This document shows, one piece after another, positions 1,840 through 58,835 of a stretch of 58,850 nt of DNA. The stretch is taken from the NCBI GenBank assembly GCA_012841305.1, contig DUVA01000181.1:1-58850 (forward strand), given 5' to 3'. The position numbers and the translations under genes were made by a program. The DNA is from Bacillota bacterium. GTDB taxonomy: Bacteria; Bacillota; SHA-98; UBA4971. Position 1 is the stretch's first letter. Every line of letters begins with the position of its first letter. The notes under the pieces were generated by a model, which had not been told where the DNA came from, did no database searches, and saw only the letters and a program-made list of their open reading frames with translations.

Positions 1840-1948
1840 GTTACTGAGAACTTCTCGATGGTTTTCGCTGGTTTTCCGAGGAATTGGGTGGCCCCGCACG
1901 GTACGTACACTTTCTGGAACCGGCGATGACCTATGGTGATCTACCTGG
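1840..1948 (+). repeat. Copy A (degenerate) of the ~106-bp palindromic intergenic repeat family
   Basis: Aligns with copies at 21302, 43587 and 56217: GTTTTCGCTGGTTTTCC-CCGAGGAATTGG-GTGGCCC-CGCACGGTACGTACACTTTCTGGAACCGGCGATGACCTATGGTGATCTACCTGG. The 5' arm has diverged. Confidence 0.8.
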
Positions 1949-21301: not shown

Positions 21302-21614
21302 CTAAGTATGAGTTCATTAGTTTTCGCTCGTTTTCCGATTGTCTCGGGTGGCCGGTGATTGGAACGAGGGGTGTCAAAATTCGGCCACTTGCCTACGGGC
21401 CGGATTTTGTCAAGGCGACCCGCTTGGGGAGCCGTCCCCGAGTGCAACACCGGCCACCCTGCATGGCACGTACACTTTCTGGAACCGGCGATTACTCATG
21501 CTGGAGACCGTTGATTTCTCCCAATAGCTGCCAGGTATTACCCTGTTTGTCAATGTACAGTCCATATTTACATTTAACTGGGAGAAATCAACGGTCTCAT
21601 GGAGATCTACTTAG
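21302..21614 (+). repeat. Copy B of the repeat family: core plus M2 module (about 21346-21459) plus H hairpin element (21504-21598)
   Basis: Termini are CTAAGTATGAG...ATGGAGATCTACTTAG. The M2 closing stem is GGGTGGCCGGTG/CACCGGCCACCC. The H arms are GAGACCGTTGATTTCTCCC/GGGAGAAATCAACGGTCTC. Confidence 0.85.
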
Positions 21615-43586: not shown

Positions 43587-43692
43587 CTAAGTATGAGTTC
43601 ATTAGCTTTCGCTCGTTTTCCAAGGTCTTGGGTGGCCCTCAACGGTACGTACGCTTTCTGAAATCGGCGATTACTTATGGTGATCTGCTTAG
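43587..43692 (+). repeat. Copy C: minimal 106-bp unit of the palindromic repeat family
   Basis: CTAAGTATGAGTTCATTAGCTTTCGCTCGTTTTCCAAGGTCTTGGGTGGCCCTCAACGGTACGTACGCTTTCTGAAATCGGCGATTACTTATGGTGATCTGCTTAG, lying between pbp and murE. Confidence 0.85.
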
Positions 43693-48113: not shown

Positions 48114-49973
48114 TCAGCCGACTACTTCGTCGTCTACCCGGAACAGCCAGATTTCGCTATGACCGTTCATGTGTGATATGACAGCTATTTGACCCCTGAT
48201 CGACCAGGTGAATTCAGCTATCCCAGGTGCGCTTATTATCTGTTTTAATCTACCGCCACCCGAAGGGCATACTGCAAGACCTGCGGGGTTTGTCATTAGC
48301 CATTGGCCGCAAGGCGAGATTTCCAGCAAATCTCCGGCTTTCTCAGCCAGAATTCGGTGCAAGCCGTTTGATCTGTCAAAGCAATAGACAGTCTTGTTCA
48401 TTATGTAGTAGATGGACATTCCATCAGGTGATGCCTGTATTGCGCTGATGGCGCCCGGTAGTTGGAACAGTTCATTTGTGGTGCTGCCCTCTGACAATAC
48501 CAGGACACTGGAGGTTTTGTTGCCCGCGGATTGCGTTTCCAGTAATGCAAAGAATTCATAAGATCTGGAAGGACATCTGAGAGCAAGCAGAGTTCCACTC
48601 TTGACGGAGTAGAGTGTCTCATGTGAACCTGACCTTGGATCAAAGACGCCTATTTTGTATCCTCCGCTACCTCGAGCGACGTACCTAAGCACAGCGTTGT
48701 CAGGGCGCCATTCAATCTCAGAAACGGTCCATCCAGAGCCTGCGCTTTCAGCCTTCTCTTTCTTGTCGTCGGCTCTGAATAAGATTTTCCCTTTACTGAG
48801 GTATGCGAAGCTGCTCGCGTTTTTCCCCGGTTCCGGACGTTCATCCGATGGAACGTCTGTAACCTCACTGATATCGCCTGTCATTGCATCAAGCACCTTA
48901 AGCCCTTTTCCTGCCGAGACAAAGAATACTTCGCTTCCGTCAGCTGCCCATGCCGGATTCTTCGAGCCTTTGGCGCCTGCATTGAATCTTGCTATTTCTG
49001 TAAGTGGAACACCGTTATCCACAGGGGCCAACGGAGGCCTTACAGGACAAGCGATAGCCGGTAGGTAGCATGTGGGTTGGTCTCCACATGTTCTGCTGCA
49101 GGTTGCCGCGGAACCGCATGTAGGCACGCAGGTGTAATAACCTTTACAGGTGGCGCTACATGTTGACATGCCCTGGCTGCATGTGGCTGCGCACGTAGGC
49201 GTAGGACTGCATGTTGTTCCGGTTGTAGCGTGTTCAATGTCGCACCCTGATTCACACGTGGGTTGACTCCCGCATGTCTCAGCGCAAGTTGCGCCACACG
49301 TCGCGCCACAAGTTGCACTACACGTTTCCGCGCAAGTGGGGCCGGTTCCACATGTCGCGCTACATGTCGCTGTACAAGTAGGGTTAGTTCCGCACGTCGC
49401 TGCACAAGTAGGATTGGTTCCACAGGTGGCTGCGCATGTGGGGTTAGTTCCGCAAGTCGCACCGCATGTGACTACGCACGTAGGCTTTATCCCGCAGGTT
49501 ACAGCGCATGTAGACCCGCACGTCAGCCCGCAAGTGGGTTTAGTTCCGCAAGTCGCTGAGCATGTGTCTGCGCAAGTAACTTTAGTTCCGCATGTTGCAG
49601 CGCATGTAACGAGACATGTAGATGAGCATGTAGACCCGCACGTCAGCCCGCAAGTAGGTTTAGTGCCGCATGTCACGAGACAGGTGGGCGCAGTAGTAGG
49701 AGCAGGGCATATCCCGGATGTAGCCATAGGTTCTACCTGGTCGTTTTTCTCCCCTGACGAGTCGCTCTCCGGAGTCTCATATTCACTTGATTCGATACGC
49801 CAATACGGATTCTGAAGACGCTTATCCGCGAGTTCCGCCGAGTAAGCGAAAAGAGGTGAATCCATGACTTCCTCGGTAGCCTTCACCTTTGCGGCGGAAG
49901 TCCAAAACCCTACTACAAGCATGCATGAAAGCACTAGTACTACAGTCAAGAACCTTACTCTTTGTCTATTCAT
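48114..49973 (-). CDS. Secreted/anchored protein: signal-anchor, acidic linker, ~220-aa Thr-Cys ladder (about 45 Cys), Pro-rich hinge, TolB-like beta-propeller
   Basis: The ATG at 49973 lies 8 nt after AAGGAGGG, inside the end of the upstream gene (TGAAATG junction). N-terminus is MNRQRVRFLTVVLVLSCMLVVGF. The repeats are TCGTKPTCGLTCGSTC... The C-terminal part has propeller-like blades (ADGSEVFFVS, SPDGMSIYYI, SPCGQWLM). Confidence 0.8.
   Translation of the reverse strand: MNRQRVRFLTVVLVLSCMLVVGFWTSAAKVKATEEVMDSPLFAYSAELADKRLQNPYWRIESSEYETPESDSSGEKNDQVEPMATSGICPAPTTAPTCLVTCGTKPTCGLTCGSTCSSTCLVTCAATCGTKVTCADTCSATCGTKPTCGLTCGSTCAVTCGIKPTCVVTCGATCGTNPTCAATCGTNPTCAATCGTNPTCTATCSATCGTGPTCAETCSATCGATCGATCAETCGSQPTCESGCDIEHATTGTTCSPTPTCAATCSQGMSTCSATCKGYYTCVPTCGSAATCSRTCGDQPTCYLPAIACPVRPPLAPVDNGVPLTEIARFNAGAKGSKNPAWAADGSEVFFVSAGKGLKVLDAMTGDISEVTDVPSDERPEPGKNASSFAYLSKGKILFRADDKKEKAESAGSGWTVSEIEWRPDNAVLRYVARGSGGYKIGVFDPRSGSHETLYSVKSGTLLALRCPSRSYEFFALLETQSAGNKTSSVLVLSEGSTTNELFQLPGAISAIQASPDGMSIYYIMNKTVYCFDRSNGLHRILAEKAGDLLEISPCGQWLMTNPAGLAVCPSGGGRLKQIISAPGIAEFTWSIRGQIAVISHMNGHSEIWLFRVDDEVVG
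49047..49709 (-). repeat. In-frame tandem repeats encoding the Thr-Cys ladder (12-, 30- and 120-nt periodicities)
   Basis: For example, CGTNPTCAAT occurs three times (about 49380-49470), and a near-identical ~47-nt block occurs at about 49507-49553 and 49627-49675. Confidence 0.8.
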
Positions 49974-49974
49974 T

Positions 49975-52545
49975 TCATTTTCCCTCCTTTCCTTTTTCAA
50001 TCAGCCGAAACTCTAAGTCGTAGATGGACTTAAGGGTCGAGTCAGGTATCGTGGAAGTCGTTCCCATGAGTTCATCAGAGAAAAGTCTTGACGCTGCAAA
50101 TACAAAGACCTTACCTCGTCCGATTTGTTTTTCTGCAGCCACCGTCCTTTCCAGGCTATCACCCACTTGCAGATTACCGCCGGCTACTTGGTAAGTGAGG
50201 ACATGTCGCTGGATTGGTTCTCCGTCAAGGCTGATGACAGATGCGATTTTGGGTTCTTTGACGGAAAGTCCGAAATTCCGCAAGAATTCATTGGCCAATC
50301 TGTCCGAGGATCCGTTTCCATGCATAACTAACAGGTATCCACCGGATTCCACGTATTGCCTTATCATATGATATTCACGATTTGAGAAACGTTTAGCAAT
50401 ATTCATAAGCACGACGACGTCGCATTCCAGCGCCTCACGAAGAGATGCAACCCTGGGGCGGCCTTCTACCCGCTGAATCCAGGTATAGAATGTATGGTAG
50501 GCTTTGGATGAATCAAGGAATATTGTCTCCTCCGGCAGCAACATCAAGGTATGATCTCGTTCAAAAGCTACTTCCAGAGTATCGCTGCGAATCTTGGGGG
50601 GATGCCGATAAGCGGCAGAGGTGAGGCTCTGACAGGACCATATGGCCAGATAGATACCTATGAGCGCTGCAAAGGCCATAGAAGGAGCAAGTGGTGCGAA
50701 AGCACGGCCTCTTCTGCGTATAAGCAGGAAGAGCCCGCATAGCAGGACAGCCGCAGCACCTAGAAGAACTGCCGGTAACCAGGTCAGGTATGCATTGCGA
50801 TTGAGCCAACTGATCATGCCTATGAGGAGTTCCCATTTGCCCGGGATAAACATGAAGAAGTTGGACCACACTGTGCTGTCAGTGAATGCTACTACCCTTC
50901 CCTTTCCTGATGAAGCTGCAGCAGCCTGAATCAAGAGTCCATATTCCTTATCCAGATCCGGCCTGTCAGTGGCGAAGAAGTTCTCATGACTATAGTCAAG
51001 ATATAGACTCTTCACTCCATAACCTGTGATTACGCCGGAGGCAAAGGGTGATATCCCCATTGAGCAGGAAGTCGCAAATAGAAATCTCGGAAGAAGTATT
51101 GCCGCAGGGTGACGGAATATGCTACGGTCTTCGTATATTGAGAGGCCTCCGGTTCTGAGATCGTATGTGCCGTCATACTTAAAGCGTAATCCAAATCTCT
51201 CTGCAACAGGATTTAAGTACGTACTGGTTCCAAAGACATTTGTATGATCACCTACTAGGAAAAGCCCTCCGCCTTTCTTGACAAATTCGCAAATAGCGTC
51301 GATTTCTTCTTCGTTATATGCCTCAGTGGGTGTTTTCAACATCAAGATGTCACAAGTCCCGAGGAGTTCACGGGAGATCGGTGAGTCAAGGTTTTTTGCG
51401 ACGTCATAGTAATCTCGAAGATATGCTGCAAGGGAATAGTAATTGTATCCGGAATCTTCTCCGTACCATAGAGTATCGTATGGCCTGGTAGTCTTCTCCC
51501 AGATAGTGTGCTTTTCATCTATGAGGATTCTGCCCCGTTTCTTGATTCCCGGATCTCGAAATCCAAAGGCAAACACCAAAAGAAATGTGATTACACAGGC
51601 AAGAGCTTGAGGAGCCCACTGTTGGGATTGATGTTTGCCTATTTTGGCAGCTCCTTCATGCCGTTTCTTCTTTGGCGAATCTTGTGTGGTTCTTATTGGA
51701 TCTGCGGTATCTTGCGTATTATAGGTATGTGCAAATCCTTTCCAGGCCGGCATTAGGGCGAGAGGCAAGAAGCTTCCTAATACCCATGCAGGCAACCAGA
51801 ATATGTCATAGTCCCGGTATGAGACGGTAACAAGCAGAAGAAACACGTATCGTGCCAGGAAGAATGCAGCCAGAATGCTGAGGACTTCCCCGGTTTCCCG
51901 CATTATATTGATTAGGTTTCTGTTATGTTTCTTTCTTAGGATGACCTTCATGGTGATCCATCCGGCAAATACCATAATCATGAGGAGCAGGTTCAGTTTC
52001 TCCGACGTGGTGGCTAAAGTGAACTCATATCCCGGTGTGCGAATGAAAACACCATTTGCGCAAGGAGCCGCAGTTACTGAAAATATTCGAAGAAGCCAAC
52101 AGATGACCGGGTCTAAGACTTCTATGTGGTGATGACGGGACTCAAAGGCGACGAAAGACGGAAGCACGAGGGCTTGCACAGTCATGACAATTCCTGCAGT
52201 GGCAAAGCCTGCGGCAATCCTACGTAGACGATTTGCAAGAAGAGTCAAGACCAGGCCGCATGCAATGAGACAAAGGCCCAGATTTTCAGGGAACGGAATG
52301 TGCGTCGAGATAAGCACCAGCGGGACAGCGCATAGGACGTACTGCTTGAGTATGGTCCCCGAGGTATCCGCGCCTCTCGAAGAAGGGGATGAGACGCAAA
52401 ACAATACCAGCCCCATGAGCAAGGTTAACGTTCCAAGGCCACGTGAGGGGCTGTAATATGGTAGAAGCAATACCCAACTGAGTGAAAGGCTGACTATGCC
52501 TACCCATAAACCTATGGCGCTCCGTTTCCCTATCTCAATATCCAT
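49975..52545 (-). CDS. 856-aa polytopic membrane protein with two GldG/DUF4350-like extracytoplasmic alpha/beta domains (paralogue 2)
   Basis: About 10 TM segments, then domain (KKGGGLFLVGDHTNVFG...GKGRVVAFTDSTVWSN), 2 TM, then a second domain (ESGGYLLVMHGNG...GRGKVFVFAASRLFSD). Confidence 0.75.
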   Translation of the reverse strand: MDIEIGKRSAIGLWVGIVSLSLSWVLLLPYYSPSRGLGTLTLLMGLVLFCVSSPSSRGADTSGTILKQYVLCAVPLVLISTHIPFPENLGLCLIACGLVLTLLANRLRRIAAGFATAGIVMTVQALVLPSFVAFESRHHHIEVLDPVICWLLRIFSVTAAPCANGVFIRTPGYEFTLATTSEKLNLLLMIMVFAGWITMKVILRKKHNRNLINIMRETGEVLSILAAFFLARYVFLLLVTVSYRDYDIFWLPAWVLGSFLPLALMPAWKGFAHTYNTQDTADPIRTTQDSPKKKRHEGAAKIGKHQSQQWAPQALACVITFLLVFAFGFRDPGIKKRGRILIDEKHTIWEKTTRPYDTLWYGEDSGYNYYSLAAYLRDYYDVAKNLDSPISRELLGTCDILMLKTPTEAYNEEEIDAICEFVKKGGGLFLVGDHTNVFGTSTYLNPVAERFGLRFKYDGTYDLRTGGLSIYEDRSIFRHPAAILLPRFLFATSCSMGISPFASGVITGYGVKSLYLDYSHENFFATDRPDLDKEYGLLIQAAAASSGKGRVVAFTDSTVWSNFFMFIPGKWELLIGMISWLNRNAYLTWLPAVLLGAAAVLLCGLFLLIRRRGRAFAPLAPSMAFAALIGIYLAIWSCQSLTSAAYRHPPKIRSDTLEVAFERDHTLMLLPEETIFLDSSKAYHTFYTWIQRVEGRPRVASLREALECDVVVLMNIAKRFSNREYHMIRQYVESGGYLLVMHGNGSSDRLANEFLRNFGLSVKEPKIASVISLDGEPIQRHVLTYQVAGGNLQVGDSLERTVAAEKQIGRGKVFVFAASRLFSDELMGTTSTIPDSTLKSIYDLEFRLIEKGKEGK

Positions 52546-52572
52546 TGTCCCTCTTCCTCTGTGGATTCTCCG

Positions 52573-54948
52573 TTAAAATGCTATGCTTCTTAAGAACTCG
52601 ATGTTAGCGAGGTTGACTTCTGACAGAGTCTCAAGATTCATGTTTTCCAGGAACATAGAGTCGCCTACCACCGTGACCCTGCCCTGCCCTACTTGCCTGC
52701 AGACCGCGACAGGCCTTCCCCACGCTGAGACTAATGTAATTGCATTCTGACGGGAAGTTGATACAGGCCAGCCTTCACGAAATTTTAAGACACCCCAGGT
52801 TGTCTCTGCGTGAAATCCCCCAAGAGGCACAGGTTCCACCCTAAATCCAAATCTCTCTGCAAGGTTCCTTGTTCCTCGGCTCTCCTCCCAGCCTGTGGCG
52901 ATTACAAGTCTGCCTCCGTCTTCTGCATACTTCTCAAGAAAGTCTATTTCCTTGCTGCTGTATGATTGTTGAGCCCCGATAATGAACACGGTCTCAGCCC
53001 GATACAACACTTCTTCATCAAACTGTTCCATTTGAACAGGAAGAAGCTGGTTTCTTAAGATATTTTGATATAATCCGCCTATGCCTCGCACCCCCCATAG
53101 TTCAGAAGAGAAGGACGGCGAGTGTGACCGGTCTACTACAGCAGTTGCGCCTTGAAATCTCACCTTCTTTGGGGCACAGAACGAGACAGGTATTTCAAGC
53201 AGGATGAATCCGGCTATCGCCGCTGCTATGAGGCTACATAAGATGGTTATTCCCAGCGCAGTCCGGCGAGGCGCCGCCTTGCTTGTGGCTCGCCAGGCCA
53301 GAATGGCAGAGGCTGTAATACAGGCCACAAAGGCGAAGTGAGGCAGCCATCCGGAAGGTGATGCTCTCCTCTGCGAAAGCCAGGAAAATACATTATCAAG
53401 AAAATCGTGGGATAAGGCTAGCGCTCCATTTTGAAAAGGAGATGTATCACCGAAGACCAGGACTTTTCCGCGCCCGAATGACCCTTCAGCTACAACAACT
53501 AGATCCCCCAGACGCTCACCGGGACTGTATTTCAGATCTCCTAAGTATCCTGAATTGCAGTTCATGAGATCTGCTGCGTCAGCAAATCCACAAGTTGCGA
53601 CAACTACAGGCTTACCCGGTAACTTTACCCTGAGCGATGCACCGGTTCCGATTTGAGTCTGGCTTTCATCTATAATGTTCGTGGTGATTGGGTGTCTGCT
53701 GAACATTAGATTGCCTCTACCCCACCCCTCCTCCAAAATACTCCGGGCAGAGTCGAAGCTCACGCCGATGCCTGCAGGCACCATAACACAGTCAAACGGG
53801 TGAGATTCGTCGGGATAGAACGTATGATCCGCGAGGACAAGCAGAGACCCTCCGTGATAGACAAAGTCTTCCAAGGTTTTCTGTTGATCTTCGTTCAAGT
53901 TATCTCTGACATTAATTCCGACAACTATCTGCACACCGGATAAGTCCTGGGATGAGATCTCGCCCCAGGATACATCATACCCTGTTCCCTCAAGATATAC
54001 AGGAAGCCATCCAAATGAAGGCCTGAACTTGTCATTGAAATCATGAGGCGAGGTAGGCTCAAAGTCTACGTCCGGAGCAGCTAGGAACATTACTGACTTA
54101 TGAATCTGTCCCACTGCCATGGGAAGTGCGCCTACGACACACAGCAGTAGAGCGATAACTACGCCTGCAAGTCCTTTCACTCGGAACGCCGGGTTCCAAA
54201 CCAGGTAATAGCTGTTAGAGGAAGCATAGAAGCCTACCAAGACGGAGAAGCAAACAGCCAGGCATAGTACAAAGGGAACATAGCCCAGTCCGTCCAAGCC
54301 CAGGGTCTTGGCGAATATGAGTAAACAGGTAAGGTAAGAAGCCGTGCCTATAAGGAAATAAGTGACTAACATGCCTGGATTGCGCTGATGGCTTAGGGTA
54401 AAAATCACTAGACATACGAGGGTATAGAGCAACATCAGATCAAGGCTAAGATAGGTAGGCCCGTACACCCCAGGCCTTCCCGATAACACCGTAACTATCC
54501 TTGAGATAAATCTGTTGAGTCCCAGTATTTCAGCGTACTGAATGGAAAGGGCGTCCAGAGAGAGGGCCATAGCAGATCCAGTTACGGCTATGGCAAACCA
54601 CAAGACAGGGTACGCCTTTTCATCCCTTGCTGCTATGGACAGGACGAGAGGAATTGTCATGACGAACATAGTCACGTATAGTTTCCCGGTGTAGCTGAGT
54701 CTCTTGGCAGAAAGAAGGAGGAGCGCTGCTAAGATGCAAGTAAGGAAAGGGATTTTGGTTTTGTTGAAGGGAGTCTTCCTCACTAATATGTACATGCACA
54801 GCAAGAACCAGAGGGCTTCCAAGGCATGAGAAAACATGGTTATTCTACATGCAATTACCGACGTGGCAAGGAAGGTACAAAGAGAGCCCCATTCGATGCG
54901 GAATTGCCGCATCACAGGGCTTTCACTTTTTTGAGGAAGCAACGCCAT
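52573..54948 (-). CDS. 791-aa polytopic membrane protein with two GldG/DUF4350-like extracytoplasmic alpha/beta domains (paralogue 1)
   Basis: About 9 TM segments, then domain (YHGGSLLVLADHTFYP...GRGKVLVFGDTSPFQN), 2 TM, then a second domain (EDGGRLVIATGWEE...GQGRVTVVGDSMFLEN). Confidence 0.75.
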   Translation of the reverse strand: MALLPQKSESPVMRQFRIEWGSLCTFLATSVIACRITMFSHALEALWFLLCMYILVRKTPFNKTKIPFLTCILAALLLLSAKRLSYTGKLYVTMFVMTIPLVLSIAARDEKAYPVLWFAIAVTGSAMALSLDALSIQYAEILGLNRFISRIVTVLSGRPGVYGPTYLSLDLMLLYTLVCLVIFTLSHQRNPGMLVTYFLIGTASYLTCLLIFAKTLGLDGLGYVPFVLCLAVCFSVLVGFYASSNSYYLVWNPAFRVKGLAGVVIALLLCVVGALPMAVGQIHKSVMFLAAPDVDFEPTSPHDFNDKFRPSFGWLPVYLEGTGYDVSWGEISSQDLSGVQIVVGINVRDNLNEDQQKTLEDFVYHGGSLLVLADHTFYPDESHPFDCVMVPAGIGVSFDSARSILEEGWGRGNLMFSRHPITTNIIDESQTQIGTGASLRVKLPGKPVVVATCGFADAADLMNCNSGYLGDLKYSPGERLGDLVVVAEGSFGRGKVLVFGDTSPFQNGALALSHDFLDNVFSWLSQRRASPSGWLPHFAFVACITASAILAWRATSKAAPRRTALGITILCSLIAAAIAGFILLEIPVSFCAPKKVRFQGATAVVDRSHSPSFSSELWGVRGIGGLYQNILRNQLLPVQMEQFDEEVLYRAETVFIIGAQQSYSSKEIDFLEKYAEDGGRLVIATGWEESRGTRNLAERFGFRVEPVPLGGFHAETTWGVLKFREGWPVSTSRQNAITLVSAWGRPVAVCRQVGQGRVTVVGDSMFLENMNLETLSEVNLANIEFLRSIAF

Positions 54949-55839: not shown

Positions 55840-56100
55840 TCACCTTGGCTGTACAATCAACTTGATCGCGGTCCTTTCTTCCCCGTCAATCTGCACATCA
55901 GTAAATGCAGGAATCATCACCAGATCTATGCCACTTGGCGCCACAAAGCCCCTGGCAATAGCAACAGCCTTAACAGCCTGATTCAGGGCGGCCGCGCCGA
56001 CTGCCTGAACTTCAGCACCTCCTCGTTCTCTCACAACTCCTGCCAACGCACCTGCCACGGAATTGGGATTTGACTTAGCAGACACTTTGAGGACTTCCAT
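55840..56100 (-). CDS. spoVS: Stage V sporulation protein S
   Basis: MEVLKVSAKSNPNSVAGALAGV...AVGAAALNQAVKAVAIARGF, 86 aa. Confidence 0.95.
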   Translation of the reverse strand: MEVLKVSAKSNPNSVAGALAGVVRERGGAEVQAVGAAALNQAVKAVAIARGFVAPSGIDLVMIPAFTDVQIDGEERTAIKLIVQPR

Positions 56101-56460
56101 ACTAAATTCCTCCTTGTATGGCCTGGAATGCCGGTTATGGATGAACTATTATATACCAAGGTATTACATTCCTGCTATATTTTCATATACAGTTAAAAAA
56201 ACGTGGAAGGGAAATACTTAAGTATGAGTTCATGAGACCGTTGGACTTCGCCAGTAACCACCAGTTTCGCCGAAGACGTCGACCAGTCTCTGCGATTCGA
56301 GAGGGCTGTGTTAACATAATGTGGGAAAGAGCAACGGTCTCGTTCATTAGTTTTTGCTCGTTTTCTCAGGACTTGGGTTGGCGGTGATTGCAACGAGGGG
56401 TGTCAAAATTCGGCCACTAGCCTACGGGCCGGATTTTGTCAAGGCAACCCGCTTGGGGAG

Positions 56461-57263
56461 CAGGAATTCCGCAAGCGCCGTTTTTCCTGGATATATATTC
56501 GAACCAGCACTCTGGTTATGGCCGTCAGATTAAATGGGAGTCTTACCCATCTATGAGAGAGCATATAGGGCCCCCTTTCCCCTACCCGGGCGGAAGCCTT
56601 ATTGACAATCCCAAAGCTCTTTTAGGGGGGCTCAGTCGAATGGCTTGCCCGGAGAGCCATTCCGGTTTTGCTTCATGATTCTCCGCGTCTTTTGCGGGGC
56701 GATAGTTCGCGTGGTCGAAAAACAACCACCGTGAGGCTCTTTGGTGGTTGATTCTCAACCATCTTTTTCAGCGCATTCGCTTGGATGGTTGAGAATCGAC
56801 CATCTTAGGGCTTGTTAATGGTTGATTATCGACCACGATCATGCCTCCAGGGGGCAGAATATAGAACACCTCATCACAGAGAATCCCTTCACATGAAGAT
56901 TGTGGATACAAAATCGACCACATTTTTAGAAAAGGTGAACGAAAATCTACCAGCTTTTCCAATACCGTGGTAGAAAACCTTCCACCTGAGCCTCAAAGAG
57001 CTATCAAAATCCCTCTTCAGCCCAAAAATGTGGTCGAAAATCAACCACTATTGCCGTTTGGGGTGGTCGAAAACCGACCATTTTCCGGCTTTTTGCTGCA
57101 GAAATCCCAAAAGGTGGTTGAAAGTGAACCGGCGTTTTGAAAAGAGTGGTTGAAAATCGACCATGTTCATGTTAACCGTAAGCGCCAAACAGCGCCCACT
57201 GCTCCCTTGCAGTGTTCATGCTGGTTCACCACATGATACACTCTATGGCTTGCGGAATTCCTG
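56461..57263. mobile_element. 803-bp non-coding TIR-bounded insertion (MITE-like) with target-site duplication
   Basis: Perfect 16-bp inverted termini CAGGAATTCCGCAAGC/GCTTGCGGAATTCCTG. Flanking direct repeat is GCTTGGGG(AG)/GCTTGGGG(G). The empty site is seen in copy B (CGCTTGGGGAGCCGTCCCC). No ORF with an RBS lies inside. Confidence 0.8.
56711..57164. repeat. Array of 11 imperfect 19-20-bp palindromes, GTGGTYGA-N3-TCRACCAC
   Basis: Copies at 56711, 56744, 56785, 56818, 56902, 56935, 56967, 57030, 57063, 57114 and 57146. Six neighbour spacings are 32-33 bp. Confidence 0.85.
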
Positions 57264-57385
57264 GCTTGGGGGCCGTCCCCGAGTGCAACACCGGCAACCC
57301 TCAACGGTACGTATACTTTCTGGAACTGGCGATTGCTTACGGTGTTCTGCTTGGATGCACTTTTGAGGCGGCAAATAGACTGGTG

Positions 57386-58171
57386 TCAATCGATGGCTGC
57401 TTCTCTAATCCTCTGAATCGCTTTAGTCTTGCCGGTACCGTAATCAACAGTGACCACCGCACCACACAGCTCAGTCGGCCCTGACGCAATCTGAAACTGC
57501 CTTGGCAGTCCTGTTAGGAAACGGTCTATTATGATATCAGTTCTTACTCCCAGAACTGAGTTTACCGGGCCTGTCATACCCAAATCAGATATATAACCTG
57601 TACCTTCCGGGAGAATTCTCTCATCTGCAGTCTGGACGTGGGTATGTGTCCCGACAATGCACGCAACCCGGCCATCGAGGAACCAACCCATAGCGATTTT
57701 CTCAGAGGTGGCTTCAGCATGGAAGTCCACGACAATTAAGTCACACTTCTCTGATAGCTCAGTCACAATAGCGTCAGCGACTCGAAAAGGACAGTCCAGG
57801 GGGGACATGAACACACGGCCGATCAAATTCACGACACCAAGTCTGATTCCGTTTGAAAGGTTTATGACAGTAGCTCCCTTGCCTGGAGCACCAGGGGGGT
57901 AGTTGGCAGGACGCAGAATGCGCGTGTTATCTTCAAGGAACCTGTAGAGTTCTTTCTTTTGCCAGACATGGTTCCCGGTTGTCAGAACCGAAATTCCAAG
58001 GCCAAACAACTCTTCAGCAGTATCCTGAGTAAGCCCAAGGCCTCCTGCTGCATTCTCACCATTGGCTATTATGGCGTCAGGCTTATAAGTATTGACAAGT
58101 TCAGGTAAAGCGGTCTTCACTGCACGCCGCCCGGGTCTGCCTACGATATCACCTATAAAAAGAAGATTCAA
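57386..58171 (-). CDS. ymdB: YmdB-family metallophosphoesterase (2',3'-cyclic-nucleotide phosphodiesterase, TIGR00282-like)
   Basis: LNLLFIGDIVGRPGR, GENAAGG, GNHVW, DFHAEATSEK, GTHTHVQTADE. TTG start at 58171 lies 7 nt after AGGAGG. Confidence 0.9.
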   Translation of the reverse strand: MNLLFIGDIVGRPGRRAVKTALPELVNTYKPDAIIANGENAAGGLGLTQDTAEELFGLGISVLTTGNHVWQKKELYRFLEDNTRILRPANYPPGAPGKGATVINLSNGIRLGVVNLIGRVFMSPLDCPFRVADAIVTELSEKCDLIVVDFHAEATSEKIAMGWFLDGRVACIVGTHTHVQTADERILPEGTGYISDLGMTGPVNSVLGVRTDIIIDRFLTGLPRQFQIASGPTELCGAVVTVDYGTGKTKAIQRIREAAID

Positions 58172-58190
58172 CCGGTGTCCTCCTAGAGCC

Positions 58191-58835
58191 TTAAGATTTC
58201 GTGCGCTCAGTCTGCTTATTGAAAACAAGAACGCGTCCTTCTTCGCGAAATCCTATTAGCTTTCTTTGCTGCACAGACTCTCTCAAATCGTCCAGCATAG
58301 TCTCGATCATTTCATCTTGATATACCAATTCTTCTTCGAATTCGCCTTCTTCGCTGTTCCCCTCACTTATCAGTTCAGAACCCAGCGCGTATCTGGCAAG
58401 TTCAATTATGAGAGATATTTCCTCTTGGGTCAGGGTGGCAACATCCCGAGATATCTCCACAATAGATACACTGTCAAACTCCAGTCGCTCTGCTTTGACC
58501 CTTGGAGCTCCCCTATGCACCAGAGAGGCGTACACTTCCACACTCTCAAAGAGTTTGTGGCAGAAGGCATCCCACAATCGGTCGGAAATAGAAGATGATG
58601 TCATGAACGTAAACTTAAGAATCTTGCCTTCCGGAACGAAGTTTACCGTCGCTATTTCCGGATAGCGAACCAGTATGGAAATGAGAAGGCTTACACTGTT
58701 TGCCGTGCTGTCAGAAATAGCTTCCAATTGGGTATCAGCGTCATCCACTGTGACCACCCCTCCTTGCGTCCTGTTCTCGCAGCTCAACTGAGAGTTCGCC
58801 ATAGGGGCAAAAACTCCTGCTAAGACAGTTCTCAT
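58191..58835 (-). CDS. Hypothetical acidic protein (no family recognised); start uncertain and close to the window edge
   Basis: Long ORF ending 19 nt upstream of the ymdB start. No motif recognised. It occupies the position where rny lies in Bacillus but is not RNase Y-like. Confidence 0.45.
   Translation of the reverse strand: MRTVLAGVFAPMANSQLSCENRTQGGVVTVDDADTQLEAISDSTANSVSLLISILVRYPEIATVNFVPEGKILKFTFMTSSSISDRLWDAFCHKLFESVEVYASLVHRGAPRVKAERLEFDSVSIVEISRDVATLTQEEISLIIELARYALGSELISEGNSEEGEFEEELVYQDEMIETMLDDLRESVQQRKLIGFREEGRVLVFNKQTERTKS

Follow-up and report, generated by a model that had tools for sequence, protein, structure and literature searches.

The ymdB-spoVS spacer of an uncultured Bacillota bacterium as a probable pile-up of non-autonomous transposable elements

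The spacer between ymdB and spoVS in an uncultured member of the Bacillota (GTDB lineage SHA-98; UBA4971; GenBank assembly GCA_012841305.1, contig DUVA01000181.1) is 1285 bp long (positions 56101-57385) and is built of four units: a palindromic core repeat, a 108-bp element termed H, a module termed M2 and an 803-bp element termed E803. The window is the whole stretch of 58,850 nucleotides that was analyzed (contig positions 1 to 58,850, forward strand). We propose that the spacer is a pile-up of non-autonomous transposable elements, not a new RNA or system, and put the probability of this reading at roughly 0.85.

Anatomy of the spacer

When the copies were read side by side, the core, H, M2 and E803 were all found where the original prediction had placed them (Table 1). 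The core, a transposable element of the miniature inverted-repeat type (MITE), starts at 56218 (TTAAGTATGAG; CTAAG at this point in strains L002 and L010) and ends at 57354, and the 117 bp between it and the spoVS start codon are free of insertions. As predicted, H lies in the core 5' arm between the two copies of a perfect 6-bp duplication, GTTCAT (56228-33 and 56342-47), the junction of M2 with the core is the one seen in copy B, and E803 splits the M2 hairpin between GCTTGGGGAG and CCGTCCCC, so that it is now flanked by GCTTGGGGAG and GCTTGGGGG. The nesting had been described as four-level. It is three deep (E803 within M2 within the core), with H beside M2 in the core, and it is the units that number four.

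Comparison of the window with itself showed that parts of the spacer recur in three other places (copies B, C and 1, the last with approximate ends), always in the same orientation. No open reading frame (ORF) of the spacer has a Pfam match, and the spacer is accordingly without coding capacity. A scan of the spacer for tRNA and tmRNA genes found none, TRF reported no strict tandem repeat in it, and neither the core with M2 nor the whole composite had a DNA match in plasmid and phage collections.

Table 1. Coordinates of the spacer units, their flanking genes and the other core copies in the window
Feature	Position	Strand	Basis
spoVS, 86 aa, downstream flanking gene	55840..56100	-	ORF list; Pfam PF04232 on identical products
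Core MITE 5' arm, first 16 nt (TTAAGTATGAGTTCAT); last 6 nt are H target duplication copy 1, GTTCAT	56218..56233	+	family consensus
H, 108-bp MITE with termini GAGACCGTTG/CAACGGTCTC, within core 5' arm	56234..56341	+	8 homologous 108-bp copies in related genomes, 79-87% identity
Core 5' arm, remainder; first 6 nt are H target duplication copy 2, GTTCAT (56342-47)	56342..56382	+	
M2 5' part; last 10 nt GCTTGGGGAG (56451-56460) are E803 target duplication copy 1	56383..56460	+	96% identity to copy B M2
E803, 803-bp non-autonomous IS4-like element; inverted repeats 56461-56476 and 57248-57263	56461..57263	+	91.8% over 122 nt to full-length insertion sequence in L136
Near-palindromic 17-mer array within E803	56712..57163	.	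7 strict and ~4 degenerate sites, two clusters
E803 target duplication copy 2 (GCTTGGGGG; one base fewer than GCTTGGGGAG)	57264..57272	+	compared with intact M2 in copy B
M2 3' part (CCGTCCCCGAGTGCAACACCGGC)	57273..57295	+	
Core MITE centre and 3' arm	57296..57354	+	
ymdB (PF13277), upstream flanking gene; 244-261 aa as called in metagenome contigs	57386..58228	-	
Copy B: core, M2 (21353-21455) and variant H (21504-21598, 95 bp) in 3' arm, between nrdD and nrdG	21302..21614	+	
Copy C: plain 106-nt core	43587..43692	+	
Copy 1: core, 5' arm diverged or truncated	1863..1948	+	

H and E803 as separate mobile units

The H terminus GAGACCGTTG has four matches against 0.11 expected, and the H inverted repeats comprise 10 perfect bases, or 20 in copy B. 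Nine homologous 108-bp copies of H are known, including that of the spacer, and eight of the nine entered the H alignment. All lie in core sequence: seven at one point of the core 3' arm, one (the spacer copy) in the 5' arm and one beside a 16-nt core remnant. The flanks in the 3' arm are duplicated as ATGGCG, ATGGTG or ATAGTG, with an imperfect pair (ATGGCG/ATGGTG) in L028, and they change from copy to copy as the core sequence around them does. Five copies have one orientation with respect to the core and four the other. The varied duplicated flanks and the two orientations together require several separate insertion events. In the core foldback, the 5'-arm site GTTCAT (ATGAAC on the other strand) lies opposite ATGGTG, from which it follows that H strikes a single type of site that the palindrome presents twice. 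Since core sequence makes up less than 3% of the sampled DNA, it is very unlikely that all H copies fell within cores by chance. These comparisons indicate that H is an independent, site-specific MITE, seen only in core arms.

The variant H of copy B does sit in the opposite, 3' arm, as had been predicted, but its likeness to the family is not confined to the tips: about 31 nt at its left end (26/31 identical) and about 21 nt at its right end (17/21) align to the family, and only the central ~45 nt are unrelated. Its flanks, ATGCTG and ATGGAG, are each one change away from the family ATGGTG.

Three further observations concern H. An apparent solo copy at L036:6375-6482 was rejected, since the final 16 nt of a core adjoin it on one side; its context is truncated and not absent. 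The last 14 nt of the spacer H (56328-56341, AGAGCAACGGTCTC) recur without a difference in the D-stem/anticodon-stem region of a related genome's tRNA-Trp(CCA) gene (L022:6023-6098); the match is borderline against chance, and a tRNA-related origin or target of H is conceivable. Both termini of all H copies consist of an outward-facing GGTCTC (window 56234-56239 and 56336-56341), the Eco31I/BsaI-type IIS recognition sequence, and a 1/5 cut from it would land inside the 6-bp duplication. The agreement is probably a coincidence.

E803 has perfect inverted repeats (16/16, CAGGAATTCCGCAAGC) and a 10-bp target duplication in the M2 hairpin, one copy of which has lost a base. Other members of its family share homology with its left ~205 nt and right ~64 nt. 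They were found with a scan of metagenomes for the E803 inverted repeat plus five subterminal bases, using a pattern that excluded the spacer locus, and the true relatives stood among chance matches. A 471-bp relative in L085 has both ends and a 10-bp duplication (TGTGAAAAGT/TGTGAAGAGT) and adjoins a tRNA gene, not in a core; a 289-bp relative in L110 has a 9-bp duplication; and a 1313-bp relative in L098 retains a shortened ORF of 253 aa that matches PF01609 (DDE_Tnp_1) at 43 bits against a cut-off of 23. A protein search with this ORF led to full-length transposases of 425 aa, and PF01609 is precomputed on all full-length homologues. One of these, in L136, belongs to a 1699-bp insertion sequence (IS), each end of which is formed by the identical 16-bp repeat; its transposase of 425 aa carries PF01609. 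E803 is 91.8% identical to this IS over its left 122 nt, and over its right 64 nt it is 79.7-90.6% identical to the copies in L136 and L135. We conclude from this homology that E803 is a non-autonomous derivative of the 1.7-kb IS, with the ends kept and the transposase gene lost.

The parent transposase scores well below the NCBIfam cut-offs of three family models: 45.3 against 115 bits for IS4 (NF033592), 42.2 against 170 for IS701_3 and 21.7 against 70 for ISAs1. IS4-family elements typically duplicate 9-12 bp according to the ISfinder description, and the duplications of the 803-bp family (10 bp in the spacer, 10 bp in L085 and 9 bp in L110) fit IS4-like elements. The parent is therefore best described as an IS of the IS4-like superfamily, with no family assigned and with its best scores for IS4 and IS701. 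ISAs1, suggested at first by an end beginning CAGG and an 8-10-bp duplication, was dropped with a score below both of these. Among viral contigs the 16-bp inverted repeat gave 36 single matches and no paired ends, as chance would give.

The original prediction held that each element targets structured parts of the previous one. This stands only for H, with its mirror-image sites in the core arms, and falls for E803: family members elsewhere occupy unrelated sequences, so that the M2 hairpin was hit by one single event, which is no evidence of structure targeting. H and E803 are nonetheless the separate mobile units that had been predicted: each has target duplications of its own and is found in further contexts too. 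The prediction would have failed had the units never occurred independently of one another, and this is not the case. H turns up where M2 and E803 are both absent, M2 where H and E803 are both absent, and 803-type elements where none of the others is present.

Two arrangements of the E803 family are recorded here in their own right. At L135:2783-4720 a full-length IS copy with an intact 425-aa transposase has only one inverted repeat and lies directly against what is left, 58 aa, of a sigma-factor gene (Sigma70_r4_2). Downstream, the translation looked sigH-like by eye, and an IS-associated deletion may have removed the IS end together with the 5' part of the gene. The sample that yielded this contig also yielded one belonging to the window's species. 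At L098:1-1735 two family members abut, one the 1313-bp copy and the other a partial copy with 4.7 copies of a 53-bp tandem repeat.

Between its conserved ends E803 has a non-coding interior of ~530 bp, and within this lies an array of 17-mers of the form TGGTYGA-N3/4-YRACCA (for example TGGTCGAAAATCGACCA), often 32-41 bp apart. The internal 17-mer TGGTYGANNNNYRACCA occurs at seven sites, all of them in E803, against 0.5 matches expected, which, as with the H terminus, is more than chance would give. Relatives of E803 carry 53-bp tandem repeats instead, with TGGCTCAC..GTGAGCCA hairpins and the motif ATCGACCAC. The arrays may be binding sites for a transposase or a host protein, or simply repeats expanding in the middle part that a defective element can spare. 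A separate array was seen at L036:1330-1790, where about 12 near-palindromic 18-mers (GTGTTCGAAAAnCGGACAC), many of them 32-33 bp apart, lie in intergenic DNA beside a core with M2 and show no IS ends; it shares the design of the E803 array and differs from it in sequence, with a compensating change in both half-sites. A reading of the 17-mers as Spo0A boxes was rejected, as GTCGAA is present at only three sites and its place in the L036 array is taken by GTGTTCGA.

The locus varies between strains. Ten metagenome contigs of the window's species (~99.5% identical) span it, and nine carry the 1285-bp spacer with 2-9 single-base differences. The tenth, L003, has a spacer of 209 bp (L003:9792-10000, orthologous to 56101-57385), in which a core left arm stands at the same position, about 78% like that of the window by eye, followed by 18 nt and the normal flank. 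The flanks of this allele are 99% identical to the window, and the single-nucleotide polymorphisms cluster beside the junctions. The strong divergence of the left arm means that the two alleles are not related by simple deletion, and the short allele is likely to have arisen by recombination replacement or by conversion from another core copy. Copy B showed no size polymorphism, with the same spacing in all ten contigs.

The core family, the M2 module and competing explanations

The core is a palindromic repeat of ~106 nt with four copies in the window. A motif scan with one genome per species recovered 29 true copies from three other uncultured Bacillota species represented by metagenome-assembled genomes, the nearest of which is 88-90% identical to the window. 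Of the remaining matches, two were due to chance and one was a copy from a contig that had been binned elsewhere. The most frequent form is 106 nt long (CTAAGTATGAG...GATCTACTTAG); half copies and longer forms also occur, and the family includes subfamilies of ~70 nt and of 212/247 nt, the latter being core with M2. The inverted repeats are imperfect, with ~10/16 positions matching after the TA. Two orthologous comparisons gave clean empty sites: TCTAT-CTAG-TGTT in the window against CTA(AGTATG...CTACT)TAG in the filled L022, and CCTC-CTAG-GCAGG in the window, the ortholog of which is filled in L041. From these it follows that the core inserts into CTAG and duplicates TA. CTAG targeting with TA duplication is a hallmark of IS630/Tc1-type transposition and of MITEs like the pneumococcal RUP, and the target duplications, as distinct from any family membership, suggest that the core was mobilized by an IS630/Tc1-like transposase.

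The CTAG target holds TAG on both strands, such that a core can land on a stop codon and substitute its own; in copy B, the TAA stop codon of nrdD is formed by the terminal CTTAG of the core (window 21611-21614). An apparent 976-nt core-bounded unit in L026 was rejected as a stray 18-nt left-end remnant beside a ferredoxin-like gene.

M2 is ~100 nt long and lies at the apex of the core. The original prediction counted it, with H and E803, as a separate insertion. That is so for the other two; M2 was never seen outside a core, and only in one orientation, which leaves its separate insertion unproven. M2 is probably an internal module of a core subfamily and not a transposon of its own. The view that M2 is an independent MITE repeatedly targeting the core apex, which would make the fully nested picture right, seems to us unlikely without being far-fetched. 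M2 has imperfect inverted termini of ~16 nt (GGTGATTGCAACGAGGGG / CCCCGAGTGCAACACC) with GGCC or GGC on both sides, but the GGCC is palindromic and extends the stem; it is therefore not diagnostic of a duplication, and a target duplication of M2 is not demonstrable. The two window copies of M2 (A and B) are 96-97% identical, as against only 90% for the stretch of core arm plus M2, the arms being more diverged (~80% by eye); within one genome, on the other hand, 212-nt copies of core plus M2 match one another at 95-98% from end to end, which indicates that the composite multiplies as a unit. M2 meets the core in two different settings, represented by the 212-nt type and, in L014, by the 247-nt type. 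The latter consists of core[1-86], a novel ~70-nt hairpin and core[49-106], and the first 7 nt of M2 (GGTGATT) align in it to GGCGATT of the core right arm; it looks like the product of an internal rearrangement followed by deletion between GGCC repeats. Finally, the ~12 copies of M2 seen are all within cores and all in the same orientation, unlike those of H.

A second possibility, which we consider improbable, combines two ideas: that H, as an obligate "parasite of a parasite", recognizes the folded core (a cruciform or hairpin) beyond a mere 6-bp word, and that the E803 array represents functional protein-binding sites, for the transposase or a host factor, built and spread by the IS family. 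Recognition of a folded core would explain why H inserts in mirror image on both arms and in both orientations. Were both ideas true, then, taken with the core orientation bias given below, these repeats would form a structured genomic layer, in part domesticated, instead of inert junk.

It is also quite improbable that the composite or the 17-mer array has been co-opted, as a protein-binding cluster or as terminator or insulator hairpins that control read-through from ymdB or expression of spoVS. The array is dyad-symmetric, with sites often 32-41 bp apart, and the non-identical array of L036 repeats its design, yet the E803 relatives with 53-bp tandem units in their interior show that the array is not conserved cargo, and its likeness to Spo0A boxes is weak. 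Six hairpins resemble terminators, against an expectation of 1.8, and one of the six is on the gene strand. The composite is retained in nine of the ten strains, but the tenth lacks it whole between flanks that are 99% identical.

That the whole unit is one structured non-coding RNA (or a single-stranded DNA element), with H, M2 and E803 as expansion segments, or a modular RNA with expandable stems as the original prediction had offered, is barely credible: the core and the core with M2 do fold into long hairpins (M2 fold z = -3.4; the + strand folds better, through G-U pairs), long-hairpin pairing is possible in 94.6% of cells among 14 plain cores, one M2 stem pair varies as GC/UA/CG and the cores have an orientation bias relative to genes, but in those 14 cores two-sided changes, pair types and the covariation score were not above shuffles, Rfam gave no match at the gathering threshold in the whole window and only two chance miRNA-model matches (E 0.2-0.25) when the spacer was searched at E<=1, H is found in either orientation and its target duplications match, E803 has a transposase-encoding parent and copies at unrelated loci, and orthologous empty sites exist.

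Several points weigh against the transposable-element reading itself. The full-length IS in L136 has no target duplication. The ~1.1 Mb of sampled DNA yielded no autonomous partner of the core, H or M2, and the sampled loci contained neither a transposase gene with core-like ends (AGTATGAGTTCAT...) nor an IS630-type partner with matching ends; the transposase families suggested for H and the core consequently come from target duplications. Two of the four empty/filled comparisons are not clean CTAG sites (CTGA and CTTAG), at 80-88% sequence identity. The GC/UA/CG covariation at one stem position of M2 is not predicted for a plain selfish element. The fixed G-U pairs of the core, through which the + strand folds better than the - strand, are likewise not explained by selfish DNA alone. 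Among cores with co-directional flanking genes (window copies and L011-L042), 17 are antisense and four sense. Random insertion does not predict such a bias, which could reflect replication-strand or transcription effects.

On the transposable-element reading, the spacer would have grown as follows. A ~106-nt foldback core, moved in trans by an IS630/Tc1-like transposase, would have entered a CTAG lying 117 bp upstream of spoVS, with duplication of the central TA; this core either belonged to the M2-carrying subfamily or became part of it. H would then have entered the 5' arm with a 6-bp duplication, recognizing ATGRNN, a site presented once per core arm on opposite strands. E803, as a deletion derivative of the 1.7-kb IS4-like IS, would have landed in the GC-rich hairpin of M2 with a 10-bp duplication. 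Having lost its own transposase gene, it would depend on the 425-aa DDE transposase of the full-length copies for its movement.

Strain differences were also noted elsewhere in and beside the window. Beyond window ~54.9 kb, the DUF4350/ABC_transp_aux genes downstream of an acetyltransferase gene are replaced in one strain (L005:11166-20261) by an OLD-type nuclease, a type III restriction-modification pair, a helix-turn-helix protein and a D5-type primase, a set that looks like a strain-specific defence or mobile island. In L009, identity drops to 83-92% across 51-53 kb (window 50500-53000), with neighbouring DNA above 99%. The product of the gene at 48114-50000 is 579, 619 or 667 aa long depending on the strain, with an internal duplication in L002.

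Significance and comparison with known repeats

The spacer offers a clean, dated example of intergenic growth by successive insertions, from ~0.2 kb to 1.3 kb, and reveals no new mechanism. It brings to light four previously undescribed repeat families, with their ends, target duplications and one parent IS, that can be masked during metagenome assembly and binning or serve there to mark strains. Repeats of this kind break assemblies and can mislead searches for non-coding RNAs, and recognizing them averts false leads.

The units have the features by which MITEs are known: inverted repeats in every unit (imperfect in M2 and the core), duplications that vary with the site for the core, H and the 803-bp family, no coding capacity, dozens of core copies and presence/absence differences between genomes. 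Repetitive extragenic palindromes (REPs) and bacterial interspersed mosaic elements (BIMEs) are, by contrast, GC-rich palindromes of 20-40 nt that are associated with RAYT (Y1) transposases and have no target duplication, whereas the core is ~106 nt long and flanked by a TA duplication. The Correia elements of Neisseria are IS630-mobilized MITEs. Among pneumococcal repeats, the 107-bp RUP has inverted repeats like those of IS630-Spn1 (PMC3049150). RUP-type MITEs and the core are both non-coding, intergenic, high-copy foldback elements of ~106-107 nt; they share no sequence similarity, and the core resides in an uncultured Bacillota lineage of anaerobic digesters.

Nested MITEs occur in plants. 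In Streptococcus pneumoniae, BOX, RUP and SPRITE repeats are inserted into one another (PMC3049150). These clusters resemble the spacer in that small repeats are nested in intergenic DNA, and BOX is also modular. H was seen only in another MITE family, at one defined site and in both orientations, which is stricter than the loose co-clustering of the pneumococcal repeats. IS1397 and ISKpn1 target REP/BIME palindromes (PMC1525189), and they share with H the preference for a repeated extragenic palindrome; they are, however, full insertion sequences that target REPs of 20-40 nt, whereas H, at 108 bp, is non-autonomous, has a ~106-nt MITE as its target and makes a 6-bp duplication.

The IS4 family resembles the E803 parent in its DDE_Tnp_1 transposase, short perfect inverted repeats and duplications of 9-10 bp. 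The MIC231 cassettes are non-autonomous derivatives of IS231, a member of that family, and such derivatives, like the E803 family, retain nothing but their ends and presumably depend on a transposase supplied in trans. E803-family derivatives differ in carrying palindromic or 53-bp tandem arrays and no passenger genes, and in a transposase that falls below the IS4 and IS701 cut-offs and is therefore placed in an unassigned branch. Nesting, insertion sequences that target palindromes and defective IS derivatives thus all have precedents; what is new here is the families themselves and the uncultured lineage that carries them, and what is somewhat unusual is a MITE seen only in another MITE.

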